Of a DNA stretch of 46,887 nucleotides, positions 13,233 through 46,887 are shown piece after piece. The translations under genes were made by a program, and so were the position numbers. Numbering within the stretch: position 1 is the first letter of the stretch; every line of letters begins with the position of its first letter. The stretch comes from Chiloscyllium plagiosum (taxonomy: Eukaryota): the NCBI RefSeq assembly GCF_004010195.1, contig NC_057719.1:6277054-6323940 (forward strand), read 5' to 3'. The notes under the pieces were generated by a model that worked only from the letters and a program-made list of their open reading frames with translations, was not told where the DNA came from and did not search any database.

Positions 13233-14333
13233 CAGTGAAAAAGGGCTTGTCATATGAGGAGTGGTTGGGGATTGTGTGTCTGTACTTAATGGAGTTTAGA
13301 AGAATGAGGGGGATTTTGACTGAAACTTAGACAATGCTGAGAGGCCGGGATAGAGTGGATGTGGGGAAGATGTTTCCACTAGTAGGAGAGACGAGGAACC
13401 AAGACAAAGCCTCAACAAAGAGGTAACCCTTTAGCACGAAGATGAGGAGGAATTCCTTCAGCCAGAGAGTGGTGAATCTGTGGGATTCATTGCCACAGAA
13501 GGCTGTGGAGACCAAATCATTGACTGTATTTAAGACAGAGGTAGGTTCTTGATTAGTAAGGGGATTGAGGGTTACAGGGAGAACTCGGGAATGGGGTTGA
13601 GAAATGTATCAGCAACGATCAAAAGGTGGAGTGGACTTAATGGACTGATTGGGTAGGTAAAAACAATGACTGCAGATGCTGGAAACCAGATTCTGGATCA
13701 GTGGTGCTGGAAGGAACTCGGGAATGGGGTTGAGAAATGTATCAGCAACGATCAAAAGGTGGAGTGGACTTAATGGACTGATTGACCTAATTCTGCTCCT
13801 ATAATCTCTGGTCTTGTGTTTCTCTTACCCATACGTTTCTTGCAAACTCCTGAACCTACCTTTGCCCTGCACATGAAGCAGGTTATGCCCCTATTTGGGT
13901 TTAGTGGAAAATAATCCCAGTTTCGGGATGTGTTATCACAGGATTTTGTCATTGTTGTCCTGCTTTAATCGGACTGTTGCTCCTTTTTCTTTCCCGTTGC
14001 TCCCTGAATGTACAGAATCATTCTGAAGGTTGGCATTCTCTGATGTGGCAGTGCAGCTAGGATTACTGGCAAAGTGGGTGAAATATCTGTCGCCATCTCA
14101 TTGTGGGTGATGAGTGATCCGGCTGGTATATCCAGAGACTTGGCCACCAACTTAACTGAGCTCCACTATCTCAGAACGCAGATCCCAGAACCAAAGCCAG
14201 TACAAACCTGGTCCATGTGTGGTCAAGACTGCACTGCTCCCTTATCTTTTAGCCCTTCAGAGAGATTTTGGTTACACTTCAGAAGCTTCTGAATTTATCA
14301 ATAACCAGGGGGTTTTGTGTGCTTCCTGTGAAG

Positions 14334-14457
14334 GTGGAGTTCTTTGAACCGTTCTGGGACAGTGATGAGCCCCGGTTTGGAGAAGGAGGGGCAAGAGGTT
14401 GGAGAGTTTGGATGCGACAGCAAGAAAGGGGCGGCTGGGTTGTCCTGAATGAGAAAG
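14334..14457 (+). CDS. NRDE2: NRDE2 coding exon (phase 0 to 1)
   Basis: cttcctgtgaag|GTG; VEFFEPFWDSDEPRFGEGGARGWRVWMRQQERGGWVVLNEK; donor g|gtgagt; continues the previous exon in frame (…KAQ|VEFFEPFWDS). Confidence 0.95.
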
Positions 14458-17202: not shown

Positions 17203-17375
17203 GCGACGATGAGGATGAGGAGGAAGATGGGGAGGAGGTCACGGACAAGACACTGCCCAAGTGGCAGCTTTGGTTACATGTGGAGAGCAGCCGTGACTCC
17301 AAGCACTGTTTGCCATGGCGAGCTGATAAGGCGAAGGGTCAGACTGAAGAAGACTGTGAGGATCCTGACAGACAG
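17203..17375 (+). CDS. NRDE2: NRDE2 coding exon (phase 1 to 0)
   Basis: tttgaatag|GC; (G)DDEDEEEDGEEVTDKTLPKWQLWLHVESSRDSKHCLPWRADKAKGQTEEDCEDPDRQ; donor cag|gtgagc. Not in the ORF track; translated by hand. Confidence 0.94.
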
Positions 17376-18164
17376 GTGAGCTAAGTATTGGCCCCCACCC
17401 CCCTCGAACGCTAATCATTGGATGAGGAAGGTAAGCCATTTGATCCACTGAGTTTGTGCAATTCGTCCTTTGGTGCTCATGTCTTGGAGAGAGAGCTGCT
17501 GATAGTTCCCAGAAGGCAATGCTTTGACGTTTCTTCCCATTTGAAAATTCCTCCCCCAGTCTCATCCACATCTGTTCCTATTTCCTCATCTTCCACCCCC
17601 CCCCACCCCCCCCCGCAGAAATATCAACCCATCCCAAACCATGCTGCCTGGATCTGTTCTCGCACCAAGTCCCGTTCACTCACCACCATTGGACTTTCTG
17701 TCCTGGACTGGCTCCCAGTCTGGCAGCGGCCAGGGTTTTAAATCTCTTTACAAATCTGCCAGGGCCGAGGGGCCCCTCTGCATCTTTGATCTTAGTCATT
17801 AGATTCCAGATTGAAAGACCAGAATGTACAAAGCTATGGGCCAGGTTCTGGGAAATGGGACTGGAATAGATGGATGTTTGATGACCAGCACAGATTCATT
17901 AGGTAGAAGGATCATCCTCCATGCTGTAGGAACTGGCTGTAATCTCCTTCAGCCCCAGAATCTGCTGAAATGTCTATTCCCATCCAATTCCCTTCCCTTT
18001 GCACATAGCTCTGATGTTAGTGTAACCCACTGCTGTTGGCCAAGCCTTCAGTTACTGGTGTTCTCTGTCTCCTCCTTAAAAACCTACCTCTTTGACCTAG
18101 CAGTTGGTCACTGACTCTAATGTCTCATTCTGAAATCCAGTGGAGCCTCCCAAAACTGGTGGGC

Positions 18165-22998: not shown

Positions 22999-23490
22999 CC
23001 TCTTTCTATCTTTCTCTTTCTCTCTCTCTCTCACTCTCTCACTCTCTCTCTGCCCCTCTCTTTCTTTCTTTCTGTTTGACTCTTTTTTTTCTCTCACTCT
23101 CTCTTTCTCTCAGTTTCTTTCTCTTGTTCTCACTTTCATGCTCACTCTTGCTCATGCTCGCACTCGCGTGCGCTCTCTTGCTTGCACTATCTTGTCATTG
23201 TGTGCGCCATCATTCTTGCTCTCTCGTACTCTCGCCCTCCCTCTGTTTCCTCCATTCCCTCTCCAACTCCTCTGTGCCTTGTGCTCCCCATCCCCACTCT
23301 GCCCATGTCTCCCCAAGCCTGGCTGCATGGACGAATTACAGGAAGGAGCTGTGTTGCCCACGTACGAGTCAGTGTTTGTGTTTTTGAGGAGAGAATGAGG
23401 GCACGGTGTTAGGGGGCACTTGGGATGGGGAAACTGGTATACTATGTGTGAGGGCTAGTTTTTAAAAAATCTCATTCTGGTAACGTGCAG

Positions 23491-24416
23491 GTGGTGAGGA
23501 GCTTGCAGCTCAGGAGAAAGAAGCAGCTGAAATCTCTGGGGAAGAGGAGCAAGAAACTCGCTAAAAACCTTCTGAAAGAGGGTGAAAACCGGAACAATCT
23601 GTCCCTGTGGAGGGAATACGCCCATTTGGAATGGCTGCTGGGGAATGTGGAGGACTCGAGAAGGGTTTTTGACACGGCCATTGCTATGTCTGTCTCTCAG
23701 GGCCTGCAGAGCTCCACCCTGTGTGACCTCTGCTTCCTGTACTCCTCACTGGAGCTGGAGTCAGTGCAGAGTGTCAGCGCGTCAACAACAATGCGGGCGG
23801 TTTATATCCTCACCAGCCTTGCCCTGGGTATCACCTACTCACCTTACGCAGGTGAAGTGCTGCCAGTTAATGTGCTGAAGGCTCGAAAAACATACGAGCG
23901 ATCTTTCCGGGACTCGCCCACCCATGACGCAGCTTTAACCGGCAGCCAGAGGCCTGGCCAGCTCATAAGCCTGATGGGCTGCTTCGCCCTCTTCCAGTAC
24001 CTGACGCTGGGCATCCAGGCTGCCGACTCACTGTACGGGCAGGCAGCTGAAAGGCTTGTAGGCCTCTCCTCGGTGGAAAAGGCCCAGCCCAAGCCGAGCG
24101 TGTGGCGACAGAGTGTGATGTGTGCGTTGGAGAGGCTGACCGTGATGCACGTGAGGCTGCTGGGGTTCCACATGCAGGCCAGCGTGTATCCCCTGGGCCC
24201 TGTCCGCCACACGCTCACACACGCTCTGGGCCAGTATCCTGGCAGCCTCCAGCTCTGGAAGCTCTACACGCAGGTTGAAAGCCGCTCTCACGATGCCAGC
24301 CGAGCGCGAAGGTTCTTCGACGCCACTGCCAGGTCAGCGCAAGACCTCATCGTGCCGCGGCTGTTTGCCATCTACGCAGAAGAGCGGAGAAAGGAGCGTG
24401 TCGACGCTGTGCAGCG
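23491..24416 (+). CDS. NRDE2: NRDE2 large coding exon (926 bp, phase 0 to 2)
   Basis: gtgcag|GTG; VVRSLQLRRKKQLKSLGKRSKKLAKNLLKE…LWREYAHLEWLLGN…RVDAVQR (HAT/TPR-like helical region); donor cg|gtaaga. Confidence 0.94.
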
Positions 24417-26105: not shown

Positions 26106-26244
26106 GGCAGATCTTGGGATTTTGTACAACACTTTCCCAGAAACTGGGCTCACCAACCGGATCCGAGCGCTGTTTGAGTACGCTGTTCAGACAGAGGCTG
26201 GTGCACACTCTGTTTTACTTTGGAGGATGTACCTGAACTTCACG
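26106..26244 (+). CDS. NRDE2: NRDE2 coding exon (phase 2 to 0)
   Basis: Polypyrimidine tract + ctcag|G; ADLGILYNTFPETGLTNRIRALFEYAVQTEAGAHSVLLWRMYLNFT; donor acg|gtgaga. Confidence 0.93.
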
Positions 26245-26769
26245 GTGAGAACAAACCCCAGCCGTTCGTGTGGGCAGCAACAGAGGTCTCCAGTTCTCCA
26301 GACCCTGTCACTGTTCATTTTCTATCTTTCCCATTGCTGTGTAGAGCCCTCAAACCAGAACCCCAGCAGTTAACAGAGAGTGATTAATGAAATATCCTAT
26401 GGGTGAATCTCTCATTTAAACCTTCATAAAATAACTTGCAGTTGGCTAATGGCCTTTGGTTTTAAGTCATGGAACCATCCTGTTTTGGCCGCTCAGCCCA
26501 TCGTGGCTATACTTACTCTCTGAAAGAGCTCATCCCACAACCCTGTGCATGTAAAGACAGTGTGCAACTCTTTTATAAAGAGCCAAAGTTCTCAAATAAA
26601 GCGAAGATTGCACTGTAGTTGAGGAGTAGGAATGTGTGTTTGGAAAATTCACTCAAAAATGTAATCACGGATAACCATTAGTCCCTGTGGCTCTCTTGAT
26701 TACCTCCTGGAATCTGAGGTGGGTTTTGAGTGGATTAGTAGATGCTATTTGTTATCTCGACAGAGTTAG

Positions 26770-27476: not shown

Positions 27477-27548
27477 GTGACTCAAGGAAACATTGAGAAG
27501 ACAAAGGGTGTATTTTACAGAGCACTGCAGGCGTGCCCATGGGCAAAG
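27477..27548 (+). CDS. NRDE2: NRDE2 penultimate coding exon (72 bp)
   Basis: aaacag|GTG; VTQGNIEKTKGVFYRALQACPWAK; donor aag|gtaggg. Confidence 0.93.
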
Positions 27549-30010: not shown

Positions 30011-31352
30011 TGAAGGTAAGGGCGAACATTCCAATCATGAGCCCTCTGAGCCTGAAAGATATGCTGTCTGTTGGCTGTTGTCTTTTAGATCATGTCTCTT
30101 CACCCCGCCCCCCCCCCCCCCCCGGTGTAGGCTTGCGTTTTACAGTTGGAGGCCCTTGAAATAGGCCATGCCTAAACTGTACCCGTTGTCCCATTTACGG
30201 CAGTCTTGTTCCTTATCTGTTCATAGTCTAGGCTCAGGTCAGATGGTTTCTGTTTGGTGAGAGCTGTTTTTGGCACACAGAGTCCCAGCTCTCCAGTATT
30301 CCTTGCAATAAAAAGTACTTCCTGACTTTATCCCTAACCCCAGCAGTGCGCTAAAATACATTGGAAGTGGAGTCATTGCTGTGTTCTGATCTCCCCCCCC
30401 CCCCCCCTCCAGCTGGATAAGTTAGATCCTGGACTAAAATCTGGATTGATAGATCATATTTTGTTGGGTTTTTTTCTATTTAACAGGATAGTCACCGATT
30501 GAAACATGAATGCCTAATGTGCATATTTGGTTTTAACAATAAAACAGAGACTTATTAAGCAAAACAAATAAGGATAAAATAGAATAAACCAAGCTGCCTA
30601 CATATGACATAACTTGAAGGATTTTTGAAACACTTCGTAAAATACAATGTGCCATCTCTCCTGACAGCACCTCTTTACTCGAACACCAGAGATAATTTCC
30701 TTGTCTACCACATCTATAGGTAACAGCTAATACCTTCGTTTCCTTGTCATGACGGCTTAATGGCCTCTTCCTTGAGTATTCATACAACTGAGCTTAAACT
30801 TCCTCAGCTTCAGATAAACTCTTTGGCACAAACAGTATTGAGGAAATAACCATTTTGGTGATGTTAAGGATAAACATTGGCCATAGTATCAGGACACCTC
30901 ACTGCTTTTCTTCAATAATGTCTTTTCTATGCATTTGAGCAGACAGGAGTTTGGGTTAATGCCAGACCTTTTGACAATACAGCACCCCCTCGGTCCTGCA
31001 GTTGGAATGTCAGTTTAGGTATACTTTTTGTTTTGAACTTAAACCCACGAACTCTGTGTCTCAGAGGCGAACGTCCTATGTCCTAGGAGTAGCAGATTTC
31101 TCTCAACTTTCTGGAAAAACAGTTGATTTATTGTTGTCATTCTAAGTATAGTGAAAAGTTTTGTTTTGCGAGCAGTACAATCAGATCATAGCAAACAAGG
31201 ACATACCGATTTTAGGGTGCTTAGACAGAGTGAGGCACACAAGGCTACAGCTACACAGGAGGTGCACAAATGCAAGATCAGCATTAGATTTGAAATTAGA
31301 GAGGTCCAGTCTAATAACAGCAAATACTAAATTCCTTCTCTCTCGTTCCCAG

Positions 31353-31478
31353 GTGCTATACTTAGATGCAGTCAGCCACTTACCTGGACAACTCCAAGAA
31401 ATAATAGACTTAATGACGGAAAAGGAGATTCGGATCAGAGCTCCTCTGGAGGAGTTGGAAATTCTTATGGAAGATTGA
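31353..31478 (+). CDS. NRDE2: NRDE2 terminal coding exon with stop codon
   Basis: ctctcgttcccag|GTG; VLYLDAVSHLPGQLQEIIDLMTEKEIRIRAPLEELEILMED-TGA, matching the conserved NRDE2 C-terminus. Confidence 0.95.
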   Translation: MLYLDAVSHLPGQLQEIIDLMTEKEIRIRAPLEELEILMED

Positions 31479-37701: not shown

Positions 37702-38887
37702 TGGAGAAGTCAATGTTTCAGGTGTAACTCTTCTTCACAGTTTTGATTGGAGCTCATTGGGAATTTTCAGATGACCTTTTTGCATCCTTCAGGACTAAAC
37801 ATTTGTTTCGGAAATGTTGGTCGGAGAATCGGCTGCGTTTTGTTGGATGATGATTGTGCTTTGTCCATTTACATTTTCTCTAGACTCGTTTTCTTTCTTG
37901 ACTCTGCCAACTCATTTGGGCCATTATCCCTTTCATTACAGAATCTCTACCATATCTCTGCGTTGCCCTCTCGCCCTTTTTCCCTCCCTCTCTTCTCTCT
38001 CTGTTTCAATAACCACCATCCGGTCCACCCTTTTATCTGCCTTGAACCAGCTCCATCTCTAACCTTCCCCGGATCTGATGAAAACTCGTTGCACTGGAAT
38101 GTAACTCATTCTTTCATTGTTCATGATTCAGTGCAGCAGCTAATTAGCCAGCCGCTGTAACTCTGTGGTAGTGTCCCTAACTCTTGTGCCAGGTTCCGTT
38201 ACTTCCTGGCCATTTCACTAGATCTCTGTCACTAGATCTCTGAACAGGTTGATCAGAAAATATCTTCGATCAACTCAGCTTGTAACATTACATTGTTTTA
38301 AATCCCCTCATAGCCCAGGGGGAAATCTGAAATAAAGACAAAGTGCCAGAGAAACTCAGCAGGTCTTGGAGAGAGAAACAAAGTTAATGATTCAAGTTAT
38401 TTTAACCGATTTCTTGTTCCACAAAAGCCAACAGACTTGCTGAGTATTTTCAGAATTTTCTGTCATTTAAAAAACTGATGTCCTTCAGGGAAGGAAATCT
38501 GCTGTCTTTACCATGACTGGCCTACATGTGACTCCAGACCCAAGCAATATAGCTGACTCTCAAATGGCCAGGAAGTAACGGAATTGTCAAGGGAAGTGAG
38601 TAACCACCTTCAGGGAATTTAAATACTCACATTCTCTGAATGAATGCAGAAATGTTAGCACGCCTGTTTAATCTAGAATGTCCGATGAGCATTTTTTTTC
38701 TGCTTTTGTTTGTGTTCACAAGTCTACCTGTGCTGTCTTGAGTCCCCCTGGTATGAGCGTGGCTATTTATAATTTATAACTGTGACGAAATGGGGACACA
38801 TTAACTAAACTCTGGGCAAGTGCGTGGTGACTGGCCTTAAAAGACCGGTCATGCCTTGAAGGTGTAGCAACAATCCAGGCTGTTAAA

Positions 38888-38893
38888 TATAAA
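38888..38893 (+). promoter_or_regulatory. Candidate TATA box of the EpCAM-like gene
   Basis: TATAAA about 130 bp upstream of the ATG of the signal-peptide exon, in repeat-free sequence. Confidence 0.45.
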
Positions 38894-39018
38894 CCAGGGG
38901 GGATTTGCCTGACTGCTTTAACCTGCTAAAGCTGAAGGTGATTTGGTCACTAGGCTGTTAGGCTGGCATTTTGCTGAGAGTGGCAAGTGAGGGGGGTCCC
39001 ACCCTGAGGAGCACAGCG

Positions 39019-39088
39019 ATGGGCAGGACTGGCTGTCTGTTTGTGTTGCTGCTAACTGATTATGTTCGCGCCGTGTTGGCGATACCAG
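39019..39088 (+). CDS. Putative exon 1 (signal peptide) of an EpCAM/TACSTD2-family gene
   Basis: gcgATGG Kozak-like context; MGRTGCLFVLLLTDYVRAVLAIP (basic N-terminus, hydrophobic core, V-L-A cleavage-like motif); strong phase-1 donor cag|gtaagc, the same phase as EPCAM exon 1. Confidence 0.62.
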
Positions 39089-39149
39089 GTAAGCTGACCA
39101 GGTGAACAACTTGAGCGGGAGATCTTCATTGCTCAGACCTTTGAGAATC

Positions 39150-39620
39150 AGCGTTGGAACGTCAACTTGAGGTTGTACAAGACGTTGGTGAGGTCTCTTT
39201 CTGGAATGCTGTGTCCAGCTGTTCGCACTGTTAAAGGAAGGAAATTATTAAACTGGAGAAGGTCCAGAAAAGACTCACCATGATGCTTCTGAGACTGGAG
39301 GGTGTGAGATATAAAAATAGACTGGAAAGACTGAGACCTTTTCATTTGGAGCGTAGGAACTTGAAGGGTGACCTTTATAGAGGTTTCTAAAATCATGAAG
39401 AGCAGAGTGAAGGTGAATGACAAAGGTCTTTTCCCTTCGTGGGGAGAGTTCAAAACTAGGGGAACAGTTTTAAGGTGAGAGGAGAACGATTTAAAAAGGA
39501 CGGGAGGGGCAACATTTTTACACAGAGAGTGGTTCATGTGTGGAATGAACTGCCAGAGGAAGTGATGGATACATGTACAGTTATAATGTTTAAAAGACAT
39601 TTGGATAAGTTTGTGAATAG
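39150..39620 (+). mobile_element. CR1 LINE 3' fragment
   Basis: GERFKKDGRGNIFTQRVVHVWNELPEEVMD. Confidence 0.82.
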
Positions 39621-40239
39621 CTCCTGTGTGTTCCTGAGGGAGAGCTGCGCCAACCCCAGATGCCAGCCTTCAGGGGGACATTGAACCCTACCAGCTCCCT
39701 GGGCTGGGTCCCATGGCACTAATCTGGAGAAGAGTACGGGAATTTTCCCTGTTATCTCTGCACCAATACTCATCCCTCTACCAACATCACCAAAGCAGAC
39801 AATCTGCCACATCGCGGTAGGTGGGATCCTGCTGTGCACCCCGTGGATTGATGCGCCTGCTAAGTTACAGCCCGGGCAATCTGACCACACCCCTGTAGAA
39901 GAGCTCCATTGGCTGTAGAGTGCATTGGGATACCCGAAGGTTGTCAAAGATGACCCTGGCACTGGAAAGATCCTTGACCAGGGATTCAGTGGGTACAGAA
40001 TGAGTTCAGCATTGGTGAGTGGGTTGGGGGAGGGGTGAGGAGTGTGCGGCTGGCTAATGGACGGAGGGGAGTAGAGAGCCGAGGGAGGTCTGCAAAAGAG
40101 TGCAAATGAAGTTGTGCAAGTTGGTGAGGCCTCTTTCCTGAGTACGGTGTCCCGTTCTGGTCGCCCTGTTACAGGAAGGAGATTATTAAACTAGAGAAAC
40201 GTTACGGAGGAGTCACTGAGGGCCTAGAGGAAGTGACAG

Positions 40240-40332
40240 TCTCTCTCTCTCTGTGTCTGTCTCTCCCTCTCACCTGCCTCCCTCTTCCCCTCACCTCTCT
40301 CTCCTCTCATTATATATCTCTCTCTCTCCCCC

Positions 40333-40367
<35 letters not shown>

Positions 40368-40402
40368 GGACTGTGAAGCTGCTTTCTGTCTCTCTCTCTC
40401 TC
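40240..40402. repeat. (CT)n-rich microsatellite tract
   Basis: Directly visible. Confidence 0.85.
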
Positions 40403-40812
40403 TGGACAGTCAGTGAGTCTCTGGCATTTGCCATGCTGCTCACTTCAGAAAAAACCAAGAGGATCCATGAGATTGGTCTGCAGGTAAACCCTGTTTTTAT
40501 CTCTTTTTGGATGGTTTTCTGGAACTTTCTCCAATTCTGGCCAACCAGGGAGACAGAGTTAATAGTTTGAAACATTGACAATCATTTGGATGGCTTGCTA
40601 CTGCTTGTTTCTTTATGTAGCAGGATCCTGTGCCTTTCTGTCTGGGCCTTCCTTTATTTAGTCGATAAATTGTTGGGGATTTGTCTATCCCAGGATAACT
40701 TTACTTTTTACATTCTGCTGATATCATTAGCAACTTTAGACTTTTGCTTAGCTAATGTACCCAGCATCCCTTGCTGTTTGGCTAAGATAGCAATCTGTGT
40801 TTTAACAGCCAG

Positions 40813-40920
40813 GACACTGCTGCAGTAGATGCTTTTCAGTAGTCAATGTCATGCCCACAGCATGTACCTGCAGGTGTGCAGCAAAATCACTGCACGAGCT
40901 GCAAAGAAATGGCCATCTCC
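40813..40920 (+). CDS. Candidate exon 2 (Cys-rich N-domain) of the EpCAM-like gene
   Basis: ccag|GA…CTCC|gtaagt; 108 bp, phase 1 to 1, open frame (G)HCCSRCFSVVNVMPTACTCRCAAKSLHELQRNGHL with 6 Cys; joins exons 1 and 3 in frame. Cys spacing differs from EPCAM and there is a competing AG 4 nt upstream, so the call is tentative. Confidence 0.33.
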
Positions 40921-41800
40921 GTAAGTTAAACTTGAATAATCTTCAATGGAGAGAAGGGAGCTATTTTTCCTCAATTAGGTTACCACTACAGCCAGTTAAG
41001 GAACTCATCCAATCCCACTCTGAGGAGTTGACCACAACATGCCAGGTGCTTGATCCTGCTGGAGTCTGGGATTCTGTGTCCTTGCAGTTTGGGGATTGGG
41101 CCATCGTTTGTCATGCTGGTCAAGTACAAGCAGGTATGTCAGTCAATGTGCTGTGGAAATGACCATCCGGGTGCTGGGCTGTTCTCAGCTGGGGCTTTCC
41201 TGCCAGCAGCTGTGCCACAAAGGGGCTTATCATGGGGTCGTCCATGAAGTCCTGTGGAAGGTGTGGGGATGGGGTTCATGGTAATACAGGGATGGCTCCT
41301 GGGAGCCAATAAAGGGGGCACGTCCTGGATGCAGAGGAAATGCAGGATTGAAAATAATCTTCTAAGGATGAAAGCAGAAGGGACATCTAGGAAACCATGA
41401 TAGAGCTGTGCACTGTTGAGCACATGAGGCCAGACAGAATTTCATTGAATCCCACTCCCAGCAAGAAGAATCCATGTTTGGACTTTGTCATTGAGTAACT
41501 TTCTGTTGGTTTAAAGGAAAGCAGCCTCTGGTCAGTTCACGTGGACCTGGTTATTTCTGTATGCATTAAAAAGAGTTGCTGAATAAAAGTTTACCTGTCC
41601 ATGTGATTGCATGTGTGATATCTTTCGGTGATCTCTCTGTAAAGAATCTGTACATTACTGTCTTACACACCATGAGTAAGAAAGCATCAGCCAGTAGAAG
41701 TCGTCCAAAGCATTGTATTCTGCTCACGTTAATTGGCTTTTAAGGTTTCAATTAACATATGATATTTGAATATTGTACAGTGACGTGCCTCATGATAGAC

Positions 41801-42788
41801 NNNNNNNNNNNNNNNNNNNNNNNNNNNNNNNNNNNNNNNNNNNNNNNNNNNNNNNNNNNNNNNNNNNNNNNNNNNNNNNNNNNNNNNNNNNNNNNNNNNN
41901 NNNNNNNNNNNNNNNNNNNNNNNNNNNNNNNNNNNNNNNNNNNNNNNNNNNNNNNNNNNNNNNNNNNNNNNNNNNNNNNNNNNNNNNNNNNNNNNNNNNN
42001 NNNNNNNNNNNNNNNNNNNNNNNNNNNNNNNNNNNNNNNNNNNNNNNNNNNNNNNNNNNNNNNNNNNNNNNNNNNNNNNNNNNNNNNNNNNNNNNNNNNN
42101 NNNNNNNNNNNNNNNNNNNNNNNNNNNNNNNNNNNNNNNNNNNNNNNNNNNNNNNNNNNNNNNNNNNNNNNNNNNNNNNNNNNNNNNNNNNNNNNNNNNN
42201 NNNNNNNNNNNNNNNNNNNNNNNNNNNNNNNNNNNNNNNNNNNNNNNNNNNNNNNNNNNNNNNNNNNNNNNNNNNNNNNNNNNNNNNNNNNNNNNNNNNN
42301 NNNNNNNNNNNNNNNNNNNNNNNNNNNNNNNNNNNNNNNNNNNNNNNNNNNNNNNNNNNNNNNNNNNNNNNNNNNNNNNNNNNNNNNNNNNNNNNNNNNN
42401 NNNNNNNNNNNNNNNNNNNNNNNNNNNNNNNNNNNNNNNNNNNNNNNNNNNNNNNNNNNNNNNNNNNNNNNNNNNNNNNNNNNNNNNNNNNNNNNNNNNN
42501 NNNNNNNNNNNNNNNNNNNNNNNNNNNNNNNNNNNNNNNNNNNNNNNNNNNNNNNNNNNNNNNNNNNNNNNNNNNNNNNNNNNNNNNNNNNNNNNNNNNN
42601 NNNNNNNNNNNNNNNNNNNNNNNNNNNNNNNNNNNNNNNNNNNNNNNNNNNNNNNNNNNNNNNNNNNNNNNNNNNNNNNNNNNNNNNNNNNNNNNNNNNN
42701 NNNNNNNNNNNNNNNNNNNNNNNNNNNNNNNNNNNNNNNNNNNNNNNNNNNNNNNNNNNNNNNNNNNNNNNNNNNNNNNNNNNNNNNN
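41801..42788. other. Assembly gap (988 N)
   Basis: Run of N; the right edge resumes inside a CR1 fragment (42789-42990). Confidence 1.
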
Positions 42789-43446
42789 CGAGCAGATAGG
42801 GGAAGCCCTAAATGAGTATTTTGCTTCGGTTTTCACCAAGGAAAGGGAACTTGTTGTAAATGAAAACTTAGAGGAGCTGGGATACAGTCTTGACCAGCTC
42901 AAGATTGATGAAGATGTTGTGCTAGAAATTTTGGAAAACATTAAGATTGATAAGTCCCTAGGGCCAGACCAGCTTTATCCTAGGCTGCTCGGGAATTCGA
43001 TTAACGAGCGAAATACTCCCCACCTGTGTCCTTTGGATAACTGACGATATGTAGTGTATACAGACACACGTACATAGCGTGTATGATCCTGTCTGTATCA
43101 CATCACATAACCCCACTGTGTGGCTGACTACATGGCACAGCTGTTTCTGGGATCCAGATCCACTCCAGAACTTAATCACAAAAGCCACGGCAGGACTGAG
43201 GGTGACAATTTCCGATTGAGATGAGGAGGAATTTCTTCCCTAAGAGGGCTAAGAGACTTTGGAACTCCTTGCCACAGAGAGCTGTGGGGGCACAGTCCTT
43301 ATGTATATTTAAGGCTAACAGAGAGAGAGTCTTGATCTGTCAGGGAATCCAGGGTTACAGGGCAAAGGGCAGGAAGGTGGATGTGAGGAATGTCAGATCA
43401 GCCATGATCCTGTTGAGTGGCCGAGCAGGTTCAAGGGGCTGACCTA

Positions 43447-45630
43447 TAGTCATGGAGTGGGAAAGGGGCAGACGGTGTAGGAAAGTGTTTAATTGGGAGA
43501 GGGGAAAAATACAATGCGATTAGGCAGGAACTGGGCACCTAAATTGGGAACAGATGTTCTCAGAGAAATGCATGACAGAAATGTGGAGGTTGTTTAGGGA
43601 GCATTTGCTAATAGTTTTGGATAGGTTTGTCCCACTGAGGCAAGGAGGGGATAGTCAGGTGAAAGAACCTTGGGTGACAAGGGATGTGGAACATCTAGTC
43701 AAGAGGAAGAAGAAAGCTTACTTAAGGTTGAGGAGGCAAGGATCAGACAGGGTTTTGGAGGGTTTCAAGGTAGCCAGGAAGGAACTGAAGAATGGACTGA
43801 GGACAGTTAGATGGGGACAGGAAAAAGCTTTAGCGGGTAGGAATAAGGAAACCCCTAAGGCATTCTACACTTATGTGAGGAACAAGAGGATGGTCAGAGT
43901 GAGGGTAGGGCCAATCAGGGATAGTGGAGGGAACTTGTGCCTGTATTCAGAGGAAGTAGGGGAGGTCCTTAATAAATACTTTGCTTCAATGTTCACTCCT
44001 GAGAGGGACCTTGACGATTCTGAGGACAGCATGAAACAGACTACTATGTTCGAACAGGTTGATGTTAAGAAGGAGGATGTGCTGAAAATTTTGAAAAATG
44101 TAAGGATAGATAAGTCAAGGTTTCTACAGGAAGTGAGGGAAGACATTGTTGCGCCTTTGGCAATGATCTTTGTGTCCTCACTGTCCACTGGAGTAGTACC
44201 AGATGATTGGAGGGTGGCAAGTGTTATTCCTTTGTTCAAGAAAGGGAATAGGGATAAGCCTGGGAATTACAGACAAGTTAGTCTTACATTGGTGGTGGGC
44301 AAATTATTGGAGAGAATTCTGAGAGACAGGATTTATGATTACTTGGAAAACCATAGTTTAATTGGAGATAGTCAGCATGGCCTTGTGAAGAGGTCATACC
44401 TCACAAACCTTATTGAATTATTTGAGGATGAGACAAAATACGCTGATGAAGGTAGAGCAGTGGGTGTGATGTACATGGATTTTAGCAAGGCATTTGATAA
44501 AGTTCCCCATGGTAGGCTCATTCAGAAGGTAAAGAGACATGGGATACAAGGAAACCAGTCTGTCTGGATACAGAATTGGCTGGGCCATAGAAGACAGAGG
44601 GTGGTGGTAGATGGAAAGTATTCAACCTGGAGCTTGGTGACCAGTGGTGTTCCGCAGGGATCGCTTCTGGGACCTCTGCTCTTTGGGATTTTTATAAATG
44701 ACTCAGACAAGGAAGTGGAAGGTTGGGTTAGTAAGTTTATCGTTGACACAAAGGTTGGTGGAGTTGTGGATGGTGTGCAGGGCTGTTGTAGGTTGCAATG
44801 AGACATTTTCAGGACACAGAGCTGGGCTGAGAAGTGGCAGATGGAGTTCAACTTGGAAAAATGTGAAGTGATTCATTTTGGAAGGTCGAATTTGAATGCA
44901 CACTACAGGGTTAAAGGCAGGATTGTTGGCAGTGTGGAGGAACAGAGGGATCTTGGATCCATGTCTGTAGATCCCTCAAAGTTGCCACCCAAGTTGATAA
45001 GGTTGTTAAGAAGACGTATTGTGTGTTGGCTTTCATTAGTGGTGGGATTGAGTTTAAGAGCCGCGAGGTTATGCTGCAGCTCTGTGGAGTCCTAGTTAGA
45101 CCACACTTGGAATATTGTGTTCAGTTCTGGTCACCTCATTATAGGATAGATGTGGAAGCTTTAGAGAGGATGCAGAGGAGAGTGACCAGGAAGCTGCCTG
45201 GACTGGAGGGCATGTCTTATGAAGAAAGGTTGAGGGAACTAGCAGTTTCTCATTGGAGCAAAGAAGGATGAAAGGTGACTTGGTTGAGGTGTACAAGATG
45301 TTGAGCGGCATAGAAAGAGTAGATAGCCAGAGACTTTTTCCCAGGGCAGAAATGGCTATCACAAGGGGACATAATTTTAAGGTGACTGGAGGAAGGTTTA
45401 GGGGAGATGTCACAGGTAGGTTCTTTACACAGAGAGTGGTGGGTTTGTGGTGCCCATAGTGGTAGTAGAGTCAGTTACATTAGGGACATTTAACCCACTC
45501 TTGGATAGGTACATTGATGATAGTAAAATGAAGGGTAGTTGGGTATTTTGATCTTAGAGTAGGATAAAAGGTCGGCAGCACATCAAGGGCCGAAGGGCCT
45601 GTTCTGTGAACTACTGTTCTGTGTTCTAAA
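43447..45630 (+). mobile_element. ~2.2-kb 5'-truncated CR1 (HER1-like) LINE, RT pseudogenised
   Basis: 415-aa ORF 43554-44801 (DWRVASVIPLFKKG, YMDFSKAFDKVPH, SGVPQGSLLGPLLF); catalytic FADD motif mutated to FIVD; stop and frameshifts downstream. Confidence 0.92.
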
Positions 45631-45674
45631 GAGCTGCCCAAATGATGGCTGTCAATTGCTTTTTTTTAAAAATC

Positions 45675-45865
45675 CTATCTGGTTCACTAATGTCCTCCAG
45701 GGAAGGAATTTGCCATTCTTACTTGGTCCGGCCTACATGTGACTCCAGACCCAAAGCAACGTGATTGATGTTTACCCGCCCTCTGTGATTGGCTCAGTCC
45801 GAGGGAAATTAGAGACGGATAATGAATTCTGGTCTTGCCCGTGACACCCACATCCCATGAAAGAA
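45675..45865 (+). mobile_element. LF-SINE-like core/tail remnant
   Basis: ctggttcactaatgtcctccagggaagg…ggcctacatgtgactccagaccc…cccacatcccatgaaagaat. Related copies at ~19620-19780, 20940-21050 and 38475-38645. Confidence 0.55.
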
Positions 45866-45962
45866 TGTGTTAACCCATATCGTCTGTGTTTATCTCCGTG
45901 TCTGAGACACGTCGTATGGACTGCCTCCGTTTTGATGCACTGGTTCATTCCGATCTTTCCAG

Positions 45963-46203
45963 TGACCCCGAAATGCCGGCTATTGCACCTGGAGATGCTT
46001 CACAAGATGCGGACAGCGAGCAGCCAGCCTGGGGGTAGGAGGGTGGATGACCTGTACGACCCGGACTGTGAGACCAATGGCACCTTCAAGGCCAAGCAGT
46101 GTGATGATGACTCCAACCTCTGCTGGTGTGTGGACAGTGCAGGGGTCAGGGTCACTGACAAGACTGGCGACGACCCCAAATGTGACCAGCTCGTCCGTGT
46201 CCA
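45963..46203 (+). CDS. Thyroglobulin type-1 domain exon of an EpCAM/TACSTD2(Trop2)-family gene (EPCAM exon 3 equivalent)
   Basis: atctttccag|TG…CA|gtgagt; 241 bp, phase 1 to 2; TPKCRLLHLEM…DDLYDPDCETNGTFKAKQCDDDSNLCWCVDSAGVRVTDK…KCDQLVRV has the family signature YDPDC…G.FKAKQC…CWCV..AGVR and 6 Cys. Confidence 0.9.
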
Positions 46204-46299
46204 GTGAGTTCCACTCTGTGATGTTCAGAATGAGTCGGGCTTCCCCTGAGGAAAACTCCCTGCCTGGCATCGCTGCCCACCTCGCACTCCGCTATTATC

Positions 46300-46620
46300 A
46301 CGGCAGCATGATGGCTCAGTGGTTAGCACTGCTGTCTCACAGCGCCAGGGACCTGGTTCAATTCCTGCCTTGGACGACTGTCTGTGTGGAGTTTGCACAT
46401 TCTAACTGTGTCTGTGTGGGTTTCCTCCGGGTGCTCCGGTTTCCTCCCACAGTCCAAAGATGTGCAGGTCAGGTGAATTGGCCATGCTAAATCGCCCATA
46501 GTGTTAGGTGCATTTGTCAGGGTAAATATAGGGAAATGGGTCTGGGTGGGTTACTCTTCGGAGGGTCGGTGTGGATTTGTTGGGCCAAAGGACCTGTTTC
46601 CACATTGTAGGGAATCTAAT
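46300..46620 (+). mobile_element. HE1-like V-SINE
   Basis: A box tggctcagtgg, B box ggttcaattcc, V-domain, tail gggaatctaatct. Confidence 0.88.
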
Positions 46621-46625
46621 CTATA

Positions 46626-46887
46626 TACTGAAATCCCCCCTGCTATCACCATGATATTAACAAAATCCCCCCGGCTATCACCATGGTATTACCGAAATCC
46701 CCCCTGCTATCACCATGGTATTTACTGAAATCCCCCCCGCTAACACCATGGTATTTATTGAAATCCCCCCTGCTATCACCATGGTATTTACTGAAATCCC
46801 CCCCGCTAACACCATGGTATTTACTGAAATCCTCCCTGCTATCACCATGGTATTACCAAAATCCCCCCCGCTATCACCATGGTATTT
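46626..46887. repeat. 32-33-bp minisatellite (actgaaatcccccctgctatcaccatggtattt), ≥8 copies, runs off the window
   Basis: Directly visible tandem array starting immediately after the SINE tail. Confidence 0.92.

Follow-up and report, generated by a model that had tools for sequence, protein, structure and literature searches.

The locus analysed here raises the question of whether vertebrates carry a third member of the EpCAM/Trop2 family, lying beside NRDE2 and related to EPCAM through genome duplication. EpCAM and Trop2 serve as major markers of carcinoma and as drug targets; their normal function is still debated, and much of the present knowledge comes from zebrafish and Xenopus. In two 2024 papers, the family is described as consisting of two members, only one gene being present in fishes and amphibians, and Trop2 as an intronless EPCAM retrogene that arose in amniotes (PMC10797630, PMC11696905); the former also places no family member in invertebrates.

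In this study, we analysed a 46,887-nucleotide stretch of the Chiloscyllium plagiosum genome (the window, on contig C10), for which a sequence-only reading had proposed an EPCAM ohnolog. The gene is called EpCAM-L here as a working name; its RefSeq name is 'epithelial cell adhesion molecule-like'. Our analyses supported the ohnolog reading, with corrections concerning its annotation, its presence in alligators and its age, which goes back before lampreys. The best explanation, which we consider very probable, is that EpCAM-L is a functional third member of the EpCAM/Trop2 family and an ohnolog of EPCAM.

Structure of the EpCAM-L gene

EpCAM-L comprises nine exons over 33.7 kb and extends 26 kb beyond the end of the window. 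Exons 4 to 9 were located by tblastn and splice-junction search in the downstream stretches of G000:C10, and their coordinates continue the numbering of the window.

38888-38893, + strand: TATAAA, candidate TATA box read from the sequence, 126 nt 5' of the ATG
39019-39088, + strand: coding part of exon 1, signal peptide (tblastn to P0003 residues 1-25)
39089-45962, + strand: introns 1 and 2, flanking the unassembled exon 2 (171 contig letters between 39088 and 45963)
41801-42788, no strand: run of 988 N, the likely site of exon 2
43524-44798, + strand: intronic remnant of a LINE reverse transcriptase (425-aa open frame; Pfam RVT_1, 79.4 bits)
45963-46203, + strand: exon 3, thyroglobulin type-1 (TY) domain, 241 nt, entered in phase 1 and left in phase 2
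46204-46887, + strand: start of intron 3, where the gene runs off the window
53471-53542, + strand: exon 4
55832-55895, + strand: exon 5
59829-59927, + strand: exon 6
64037-64219, + strand: exon 7
68698-68757, + strand: exon 8
72679-72732, + strand: exon 9, with the stop codon

The upstream TATA motif and phase-1 signal-peptide exon of the earlier reading were both recovered, the former as a candidate promoter, and a transcript contig from runs presumed to be RNA extends 5' to 38944. The coding part of exon 1 starts with the ATG at 39019 and covers 70 nt, i.e., 23 codons plus 1 nt, ending in phase 1 at a G followed by the donor GTAAGC; its peptide equals the N-terminus of the RefSeq protein P0003 (residues 1-24) except for one missing residue. 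Exon 3 is preceded by AG at 45961-45962 and followed by GTGAGT from 46204. Its third frame alone is open (79 codons), so that the exon is entered in phase 1 and left in phase 2, and its peptide is 100% identical to P0003 residues 83-161. Open frames run through exons 1 and 3-9, and GT/GC-AG splicing yields P0003.

Domain organization and predicted fold

Exon 3 matched Pfam Thyroglobulin_1 (PF00086) with 61.1 bits (E 7e-17; 56.8 bits for full-length P0003), and its best whole-exon matches in the PDB, over residues 3-78, were Trop2 (E 4e-15) and EpCAM (E 2e-14), which bears out its proposed EpCAM/Trop2 type. The domain carries the CWCV motif and six cysteines, at P0003 positions 86, 117, 128, 135, 137 and 155. 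The downstream exons proved to belong to the same family, encoding the EPCAM/Trop-2 C-domain (EPCAM-Trop-2_C, PF21283, residues 178-268 of P0003, 33.1 bits against a cut-off of 25.9), a transmembrane helix and a tail.

The N-domain of EpCAM-L differs from that of the EpCAM type in having eight cysteines rather than six and an acidic extension of 20 residues. Pfam EpCAM_N (PF18635) gave no match in P0003; shark EPCAM itself scored 25.5 bits, just below the 27.5-bit cut-off. Four N-domain cysteine columns are common to at least 90% of the aligned sequences, with C79 present in all rows, so that the region is a variant N-domain.

The AF2 model of P0003 reached a pLDDT of 75, with low confidence at residues 22-43. 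It contained predicted helices at residues 4-21 (signal peptide) and 281-324, and the hydrophobic stretch aligned with the EPCAM transmembrane helix, in which the A-x-x-x-G motif was kept. All 10 top Foldseek matches of the model in the PDB were EpCAM or Trop2 (E 2e-19 to 6e-17; target TM 0.74-0.81), led by the human EPCAM (TACSTD1) ectodomain 4mzv (E 2e-19, TM 0.77). The model thus has the family ectodomain fold, and EpCAM-L is predicted to be a type I membrane glycoprotein with signal peptide, N-domain, TY domain, C-domain, a single transmembrane helix and a short tail, arranged in the order found in EPCAM. The tails of EpCAM-L proteins consist of RRR followed by acidic residues and, unlike that of EPCAM, lack a basic K/R-rich segment.

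Phylogeny and age of the split from EPCAM

The maximum likelihood tree of 40 proteins separated an EpCAM-L clade (96/96), including lamprey, sharks, ray-fins, coelacanth, lungfish, amphibians and alligator, from a clade of EPCAM and TACSTD2 (96/88) that holds two further lamprey genes; EpCAM-L did not nest within EPCAM, and lamprey genes are found on either side of the split. The tree was rooted on a single very long branch (3.5 changes per site), the 'EpCAM-like' protein P0229 of the crinoid Antedon, which was used solely as outgroup and was the only crinoid representative among the best 150 of 966 profile matches. This echinoderm protein contains a TY domain and aligned with positions 28-311 of the family profile (E 8e-24), but it is only 25% identical to EpCAM-L and 18% to EPCAM and has no EPCAM-Trop-2_C Pfam match.

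EpCAM-L shares 33% identity with the EPCAM-type protein P0049 of the same genome. Between shark and sturgeon, Xenopus and lamprey, EpCAM-L identity amounts to 74, 68 and 56%, respectively, compared with 41, 36 and 32-33% for EPCAM between shark and sturgeon, the frog Leptobrachium (not Xenopus) and lamprey. By these identities, EpCAM-L evolves about half as fast as EPCAM.

On this rooting by one long outgroup branch, the split between EpCAM-L and EPCAM predates the lamprey divergence. It could instead date from the second genome duplication, confined to jawed vertebrates, if the lamprey genes were misplaced by long branches or arose by lamprey-specific duplications. We consider this timing unlikely. 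It draws on the long branches of the EPCAM-side lamprey genes (0.65-1.05), on their EpCAM-L-like set of eight N-domain cysteines and on the root hanging on one crinoid; against it, the lamprey protein P0045 carries the N-domain specific to EpCAM-L, its identity to shark EpCAM-L far exceeds that of the EPCAM-side lamprey genes to shark EPCAM, and the clade uniting it with the other EpCAM-L proteins is the well-supported one described above. Furthermore, a gnathostome-only duplication was rejected by the AU test (p = 0.0055, log-likelihood difference 23.1) for a group chosen after the tree was seen.

TACSTD2 (Trop2; PDB 7pee, 7e5n) has the family Pfam domains and fold in common with EpCAM-L (E 3e-18, 32% identity to the EpCAM-L model). 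In the tree, it (rodent P0155) nests within amniote EPCAM, far from the EpCAM-L clade, whereas EpCAM-L has nine exons and predates the lamprey split; the exon number and the separate clade rule out a TACSTD2 ortholog. No intronless copy of the family was seen in this genome.

Paralogous blocks around EpCAM-L and EPCAM

As the earlier reading stated, NRDE2 lies upstream of the gene on the same strand.

775-31433, + strand: part of NRDE2 within the window, with exons at 775-915, 14280-14453, 17238-17378, 23488-23577, 26125-26247, 27477-27548 and 31338-31433

These exons were assigned by Pfam NRDE-2 (PF08424) at 775-915 and 14280-14453 and by tblastn with the NRDE2 part of P0139, a fused whitefish model. 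Measured from the last matched exon (31338-31433), the ATG of EpCAM-L is 7.6 kb and its TY exon 14.5 kb downstream, within the 7.5-15 kb first given. In whitefish, fused gene models combine an NRDE-2 domain with EpCAM-L, which is the sole linkage evidence from outside this shark.

The more distant flanks also followed the prediction. The order on C10 is TTC7(+) at 5.72-5.85 Mb, calmodulin(-) at 6.20 Mb, NRDE2(+), EpCAM-L(+) at 6.316-6.350 Mb, PSMC1(-) at 6.369 Mb and a THIK channel(-) at 6.457 Mb. A separate, true EPCAM, encoding P0049, was found at C9:28526398-28534821(-), directly upstream of MSH2 and on the same strand; read in reverse, C9 carries TTC7, EPCAM, MSH2, a THIK channel and MSH6. 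EpCAM-L thus differs from EPCAM in lying between NRDE2 and PSMC1 rather than beside MSH2, and at 33.7 kb against 8.4 kb, it is fourfold longer than shark EPCAM.

The two genes have identical intron phases over the first seven introns compared (1,1,2,2,0,0,0). The earlier claim that EPCAM exon 3 equals the 241-bp exon in both length and phases stands for the phases only, the shark EPCAM exon being 256 bp long. Because EpCAM-L and EPCAM reside on different chromosome-scale contigs and share their intron phases, the pair is neither a tandem duplicate nor a retrocopy.

The TTC7, EpCAM-family and THIK genes have the same order and relative strands on C10 and C9, so the two EpCAM-type genes lie within collinear blocks that share further pairs of paralogs, as expected of ohnologs. 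A small segmental duplication, or one preceding the vertebrates, is less probable still than the jawed-vertebrate timing: only two flanking families, TTC7 and THIK K2P, have copies in both blocks of this genome, and the family is already represented in an echinoderm, but the paired genes keep their order and relative orientation over some 0.74 Mb of C10 and 0.96 Mb of C9, both chromosome-scale contigs, and the single crinoid, when it serves as root, lies outside the two clades. For NRDE2, PSMC1, MSH2 and MSH6, the opposite block contains no partner. No calmodulin was found beside EPCAM on C9, and the only other calmodulin exon match was on C98835, a small unplaced contig, so that the CALM pair is confirmed on the C10 side only.

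With EpCAM-L as an ohnolog of EPCAM, an ancestral block containing TTC7, CALM, the EpCAM ancestor and a THIK channel would have been copied during an early round of vertebrate genome duplication, prior to the separation of lampreys and jawed vertebrates. One EpCAM copy would have become EPCAM, later giving rise to the intronless retrogene TACSTD2 in amniotes, and the other would have remained between NRDE2 and PSMC1 as EpCAM-L.

The missing second exon and integrity of the gene

Exon 2, corresponding to P0003 residues 25-81, gave no tblastn match in the window or in the whole assembly. Spliced contigs from public runs of two studies, one in X1 and one in X7, nevertheless join 39088 to 45963 with GT..AG borders, bridging 6874 bp of genomic distance with exactly 171 letters in between; the source runs are only guessed to be RNA. 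The X7 contig has 0 mismatches to the window, and contig pieces in X1, X2 and X7 begin or end exactly at 45963 and 46203. The 171-nt stretch is the predicted exon 2 encoding the 8-Cys N-domain. Since exon 2 must fall within 39089-45962 and the readable part of that interval does not contain it, it is probably hidden in the N-run. A mis-join of the scaffold across this gap had been named as a possible pitfall; because single spliced contigs carry exons from both sides, the scaffold is correctly joined there.

The absence of exon 2 from the assembly could also mean that the exon was truly deleted and that this shark carries only a decaying copy without function, and P0305 (292 aa), the RefSeq model for this very sequence, indeed starts at an intronic ATG and omits exons 1 and 2, i.e., the signal peptide and N-domain. 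Such decay is highly improbable given the joined contigs, the position of the 988-N run within the correct interval, and the eight assembled exons, all of which have open frames and match the sister-species model at 99% identity across residues 82-338. EpCAM-L is a real and functional gene in this shark, and expressed on the evidence of the runs presumed to be RNA, and these results correct the truncated model annotated in this assembly.

Distribution and annotation

EpCAM-L was found in lampreys, cartilaginous fishes, non-teleost ray-fins, some teleosts, coelacanth, lungfish, amphibians and alligators. None of the 47 matches of a word-seeded protein search came from mammals or birds, an absence for which statements in two papers also speak; the loss of EpCAM-L did not extend to every amniote, as shown by partial models in two alligators. 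It has already been annotated automatically in RefSeq, under automatic names, in dozens of species, and the proteins called 'epithelial cell adhesion molecule-like' (P0003, P0305, P0006, P0040, P0045 and others) represent the same gene or its orthologs, with 56-100% identity. No published description of EpCAM-L was found in our literature searches.

These names, and that of the Xenopus ortholog, which is even called 'epithelial cell adhesion molecule', might suggest a relocated true EPCAM or a shark-specific duplicate, an explanation with next to no probability that is already refuted by the separate EPCAM adjoining MSH2 and by the tree, the two proteins being only 33% identical and EpCAM-L orthologs spanning lamprey to alligator.

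Proposed function and significance

EpCAM-L may act at the cell surface like EpCAM, probably via its ectodomain and transmembrane helix. Xenopus EpCAM acts through the basic segment RRKKGKYR of its tail (PMC3003323), and because the EpCAM-L tail has no such segment, its intracellular output probably differs. The slow evolution of EpCAM-L, at about half the EPCAM rate, suggests a tightly constrained partner or ligand.

A more far-reaching reading, on which we are evenly divided, is that EpCAM-L may be an undescribed third founding member of the family. It would stem from the first of the vertebrate genome duplications, lie nearer than EPCAM to the echinoderm homolog and be under much stronger constraint, have a distinct function on account of its acidic 8-Cys N-domain and non-basic tail, and have been lost independently in mammals, birds and most teleosts. 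If this is true, the presence of EpCAM-L in Xenopus, axolotl and salmonids would make the assumption of a single EpCAM in fish and amphibian work wrong.

Our data place a second, older and more conserved member of the family in sharks, many fishes and amphibians, and they reveal a homolog in a crinoid. The family history is revised to one genome-duplication pair plus one retrogene. EpCAM-L and EPCAM offer a natural comparison for telling which regions of the protein are important, in which the transmembrane helix and C-domain are conserved and the N-domain and tail differ. In studies of Xenopus, axolotl and salmonids, this additional gene of the family may contribute to EpCAM phenotypes or conceal them.

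Exon Structure and Splicing of EpCAM-L

The gene beside NRDE2, here EpCAM-L (L), comprises nine exons, one of them missing from the assembly, across 33.7 kb of the window's contig C10 (G000:C10:6316072-6349785). Both exons proposed from the sequence alone were recovered. The thyroglobulin type-1 (TY) exon is 241 bp long (window 45963-46203), is preceded by AG and followed by GTGAGT, and carries a single open frame of 79 codons matching Pfam Thyroglobulin_1 at 61.1 bits; the best solved-structure matches of the whole exon were Trop2 (E 4e-15) and EpCAM (E 2e-14). Among 5.8 billion proteins searched, the 338-aa RefSeq model of a bamboo shark (P0003, "epithelial cell adhesion molecule-like") proved 100% identical across this exon, and 44 of the 45 matches among 75 candidates were proteins of the same kind, with 51-100% identity. 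The signal-peptide exon was found by tblastn of P0003 on the window, with its ATG at 39019 and its donor after 39088 (70 nt, phase 1), and encodes one residue less than P0003. The remaining exons were sought in the 80 kb downstream of the window, where exact GT/GC-AG junctions reproduced P0003.

Exons of EpCAM-L downstream of the window (window-continuing numbering; junctions of each reproduce P0003)
53471-53542, + strand, exon 4
55832-55895, + strand, exon 5, with a GC donor
59829-59927, + strand, exon 6
64037-64219, + strand, exon 7
68698-68757, + strand, exon 8
72679-72732, + strand, exon 9, with the stop codon

Residues 25-81 of P0003, the cysteine-rich N-domain encoded by exon 2, had no match in the window by tblastn (E up to 10, word size 2), nor anywhere in the 3.56-Gb assembly in two whole-genome searches. 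We aligned contigs of four public sequencing runs (X1, X2, X4, and X7, only guessed to be RNA) to window 38800-46887. One contig each in X1 and X7, which belong to different studies, connects 39088 and 45963 across GT..AG borders, with 171 letters in between, the exact exon 2 length predicted from the phases and P0003. The X7 contig (655 letters) consists of 38983-39088, the 171 letters, 45963-46203 and 137 more letters, with 0 mismatches to the window. Contig pieces of X1, X2, and X7 end exactly at 45963 and 46203, and X4 crosses the intron-exon border (45897-46047), as expected of DNA or unspliced RNA. Such a 6.9-kb GT..AG skip is the pattern of spliced mRNA, so exons 1 and 3 belong to one transcript. 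A scaffold mis-join across the run of 988 Ns at 41801-42788, which the sequence-only reading had named as a danger, is rejected, since the X1 and X7 contigs connect the exons on both sides; exon 2 therefore exists though unassembled, and most likely sits in or near this run. The RefSeq model on the window's own sequence (P0305, 292 aa), whose N- and C-terminus match the coding of this sequence, starts at an intronic ATG (window 45857) and omits exons 1 and 2, hence the signal peptide and N-domain; the signal exon read from sequence alone is better than this annotation.

Several repeats surround the TY exon. A LINE remnant lies in the intron on the sense strand (window 42789-45620) with a 425-aa open frame (43524-44798, RVT_1 79 bits). 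Contigs from each of the four runs map to it densely and with numerous differences, in keeping with a repeat family. A (TC)n tract occupies 40240-40364, a short tRNA-derived-SINE-like element at 46290-46620 peaks at a summed contig depth of about 700,000, and a 33-bp tandem repeat of 8.2 copies (46622-46887) runs to the window end.

Protein Family and Predicted Fold

P0003 contains the Pfam TY and EPCAM-Trop-2_C domains, each above its cut-off, and no match of Pfam EpCAM_N was obtained on it. The possibility that the downstream exons belong to another TY-domain protein is rejected, since they complete P0003 with its EPCAM-Trop-2_C domain. An AlphaFold2 model of P0003 built from a 31-sequence alignment reached a mean pLDDT of 75.2, dropping to low values in residues 22-43 and 321-338, and all 10 of its 10 best PDB matches were EpCAM or Trop2 (top 4mzv, E 2e-19, TM 0.77, 30% identity). 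Of the 14 cysteines in the L ectodomain, 8 belong to the N-domain and 6 to TY; cow EPCAM has 12. In the transmembrane helix, L292, A293, and G297 are kept in at least 90% of aligned sequences, giving an A-x-x-x-G motif, which may have a role in claudin-7 binding. Dimer prediction with two copies of residues 46-275 scored 0.00, which speaks neither for nor against a dimer. The protein would presumably localise to the surface, and its partners and any adhesion or junction role are likewise presumptive.

A Separate EPCAM and Two Paralogous Blocks

EpCAM-L is a paralog of EPCAM, not its displaced copy. Among the best candidates scored in the genome search, only two loci matched beyond the TY domain, and no intronless family copy was seen. 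The second locus (C9:28526398-28534821, - strand, on another contig) encodes P0049 (323 aa), which is EPCAM-like by sequence and Pfam content and shares 33% identity with P0003. MutS_V exons matching human MSH2 (E 7e-47) follow downstream in its orientation, then a THIK-type K2P channel on the opposite strand and MSH6 (E 2e-23); a TTC7 gene lies upstream (29.21-29.32 Mb). A translocated true EPCAM is thus rejected for EpCAM-L, because a separate EPCAM adjoins MSH2 on C9.

The flanks agree with the claim, made from the window sequence, that EpCAM-L is a third EpCAM/Trop2-family gene and an ohnolog of EPCAM on the CALM1 block: calmodulin lies upstream, and PSMC1 and a THIK channel matching KCNK13 lie downstream.

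Genes of the C10 block
5.72-5.85 Mb, + strand, TTC7
6.199-6.205 Mb, - strand, calmodulin
between calmodulin and EpCAM-L, + strand, NRDE2
between NRDE2 and PSMC1, + strand, EpCAM-L
6.369 Mb, - strand, PSMC1 (E 5e-37 to Rpt2)
6.457 Mb, - strand, THIK channel (E 9e-121 to KCNK13)

Read in reverse, C9 gives TTC7, EPCAM, MSH2, THIK, and MSH6, and genes common to both blocks are on the same relative strands; the two blocks would match human gene order at 2p21 and 14q32. No calmodulin was found beside EPCAM on C9, the sole other calmodulin exon being on the small unplaced contig C98835, where a second calmodulin gene was observed (G000:C98835:9323-10591); its proper place may be next to EPCAM. EpCAM-L and EPCAM share their first seven intron phases (1,1,2,2,0,0,0), but exon lengths are unlike. 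Accordingly, the proposed likeness to EPCAM exon 3 stood for phase and failed for length, as exon 3 of L measures 241 bp and that of shark EPCAM 256 bp.

Phylogeny and Age

Searching 1.84 billion representatives with the family profile yielded 966 matches at E up to 0.001, from which a rodent TACSTD2, two further lamprey genes, and a crinoid "EpCAM-like" protein as outgroup were taken. In the careful maximum likelihood tree (40 rows, 353 columns), which has a very long outgroup branch, the L clade (support 96/96) placed lamprey as sister to jawed vertebrates. In the E clade of EPCAM-type genes (96/88), a lamprey group (99/93) was sister to jawed-vertebrate EPCAM (100/100), and TACSTD2 nested among amniote EPCAMs. 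When all L and E sequences of jawed vertebrates were constrained to a single clade, a grouping chosen once the tree had been seen, the log-likelihood fell by 23.1 units (AU p = 0.0055). A quick tree of 49 rows recovered both clades (SH-aLRT 94 and 80); nine rows (P0141, P0064, P0146, P0158, P0154, P0172, P0180, P0178, and P0164) were left out of the careful tree for redundancy, incompleteness, lack of a name or very long branches. A shark-specific EPCAM duplicate is rejected, as the L clade stands apart from EPCAM and TACSTD2 and holds both lamprey and jawed vertebrates.

In lampreys the family numbers at least three genes: P0045 is of L type, and P0159 and P0161 fall on the EPCAM side. The latter two proteins still have an L-like cysteine-rich N-domain (about 7-8 cysteines), suggesting a loss of two cysteines in jawed-vertebrate EPCAM. 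The crinoid Antedon protein P0229 aligns along the full EpCAM profile (E 8e-24), contradicting the published claim of no such genes in invertebrates, and is nearer L (25% identity) than EPCAM (18%). Six proteins of 1800-2950 aa (P0205, P0207, P0209, P0224, P0230, and P0247) align to nearly the whole profile through their C-terminal ~280 residues; P0205 additionally carries 7 TY, 3 Kunitz, and 5 WAP repeats, besides antistasin and lustrin repeats.

Distribution Across Vertebrates

In the full-length search, 47 of 2533 candidates matched P0003, with identities of 45-100%. They comprise seven cartilaginous fishes, three lamprey models, sturgeon, bichir, gars, bonytongues, eels and relatives, salmonids, coelacanth, lungfish, many frogs, a salamander, and caecilians. 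Alligator sinensis was the sole amniote, to which its 90% cluster adds an A. mississippiensis model, both partial. No mammal, bird, squamate or turtle L was among the 47 matches of this word-seeded search, a good but not conclusive indication that L is absent from these groups. The alligator models (P0143, P0303, and P0304, from two species) are partial with odd substitutions, and L may be decaying in crocodilians. Salmonid L proteins (P0140-P0142) have branches of 0.5-0.7 and 51-57% identity to shark L, compared with 70-74% in other ray-fins, which suggests relaxed or changed constraint. Whitefish models P0139, P0308, and P0309 (580-585 aa) fuse a C-terminal NRDE2 part to EpCAM-L, either by read-through annotation or as a real fusion transcript, and thus in a teleost, too, NRDE2 and EpCAM-L are neighbours with the same orientation.

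Constraint, Cytoplasmic Tail and Significance

EpCAM-L is constrained: the shark protein shares 74% identity with sturgeon, 68% with Xenopus, and 56% with lamprey L, and shark EPCAM 41% with sturgeon, 36% with the frog Leptobrachium (not Xenopus), and 32-33% with lamprey. EpCAM-L is no new kind of system and is already public under automatic annotation names, but its evolutionary reading appears unpublished. No description of a third EpCAM/Trop2 paralog was found in the openly accessible article texts searched; PMC7349879 mentions Trop2 alone as a paralogue, and the exact RefSeq name turned up in just three papers, all on fish proteomics or RNA-seq.

The studied Xenopus EpCAM acts, according to PMC3003323, via a short basic tail segment, RRKKGKYR, whereas in L tails, that of X. 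tropicalis P0040 included, acidic residues come after an RRR. The studied Xenopus gene is therefore of E type, and the L type is a different and apparently unstudied gene, whose intracellular output, judging from these tails, probably differs from that of EPCAM. Xenopus L-type records exist in X. tropicalis (P0040) and X. laevis (P0311), and RefSeq names this L-type gene "epithelial cell adhesion molecule", a trap for users, since it is the studied Xenopus EpCAM that has the E-type tail.
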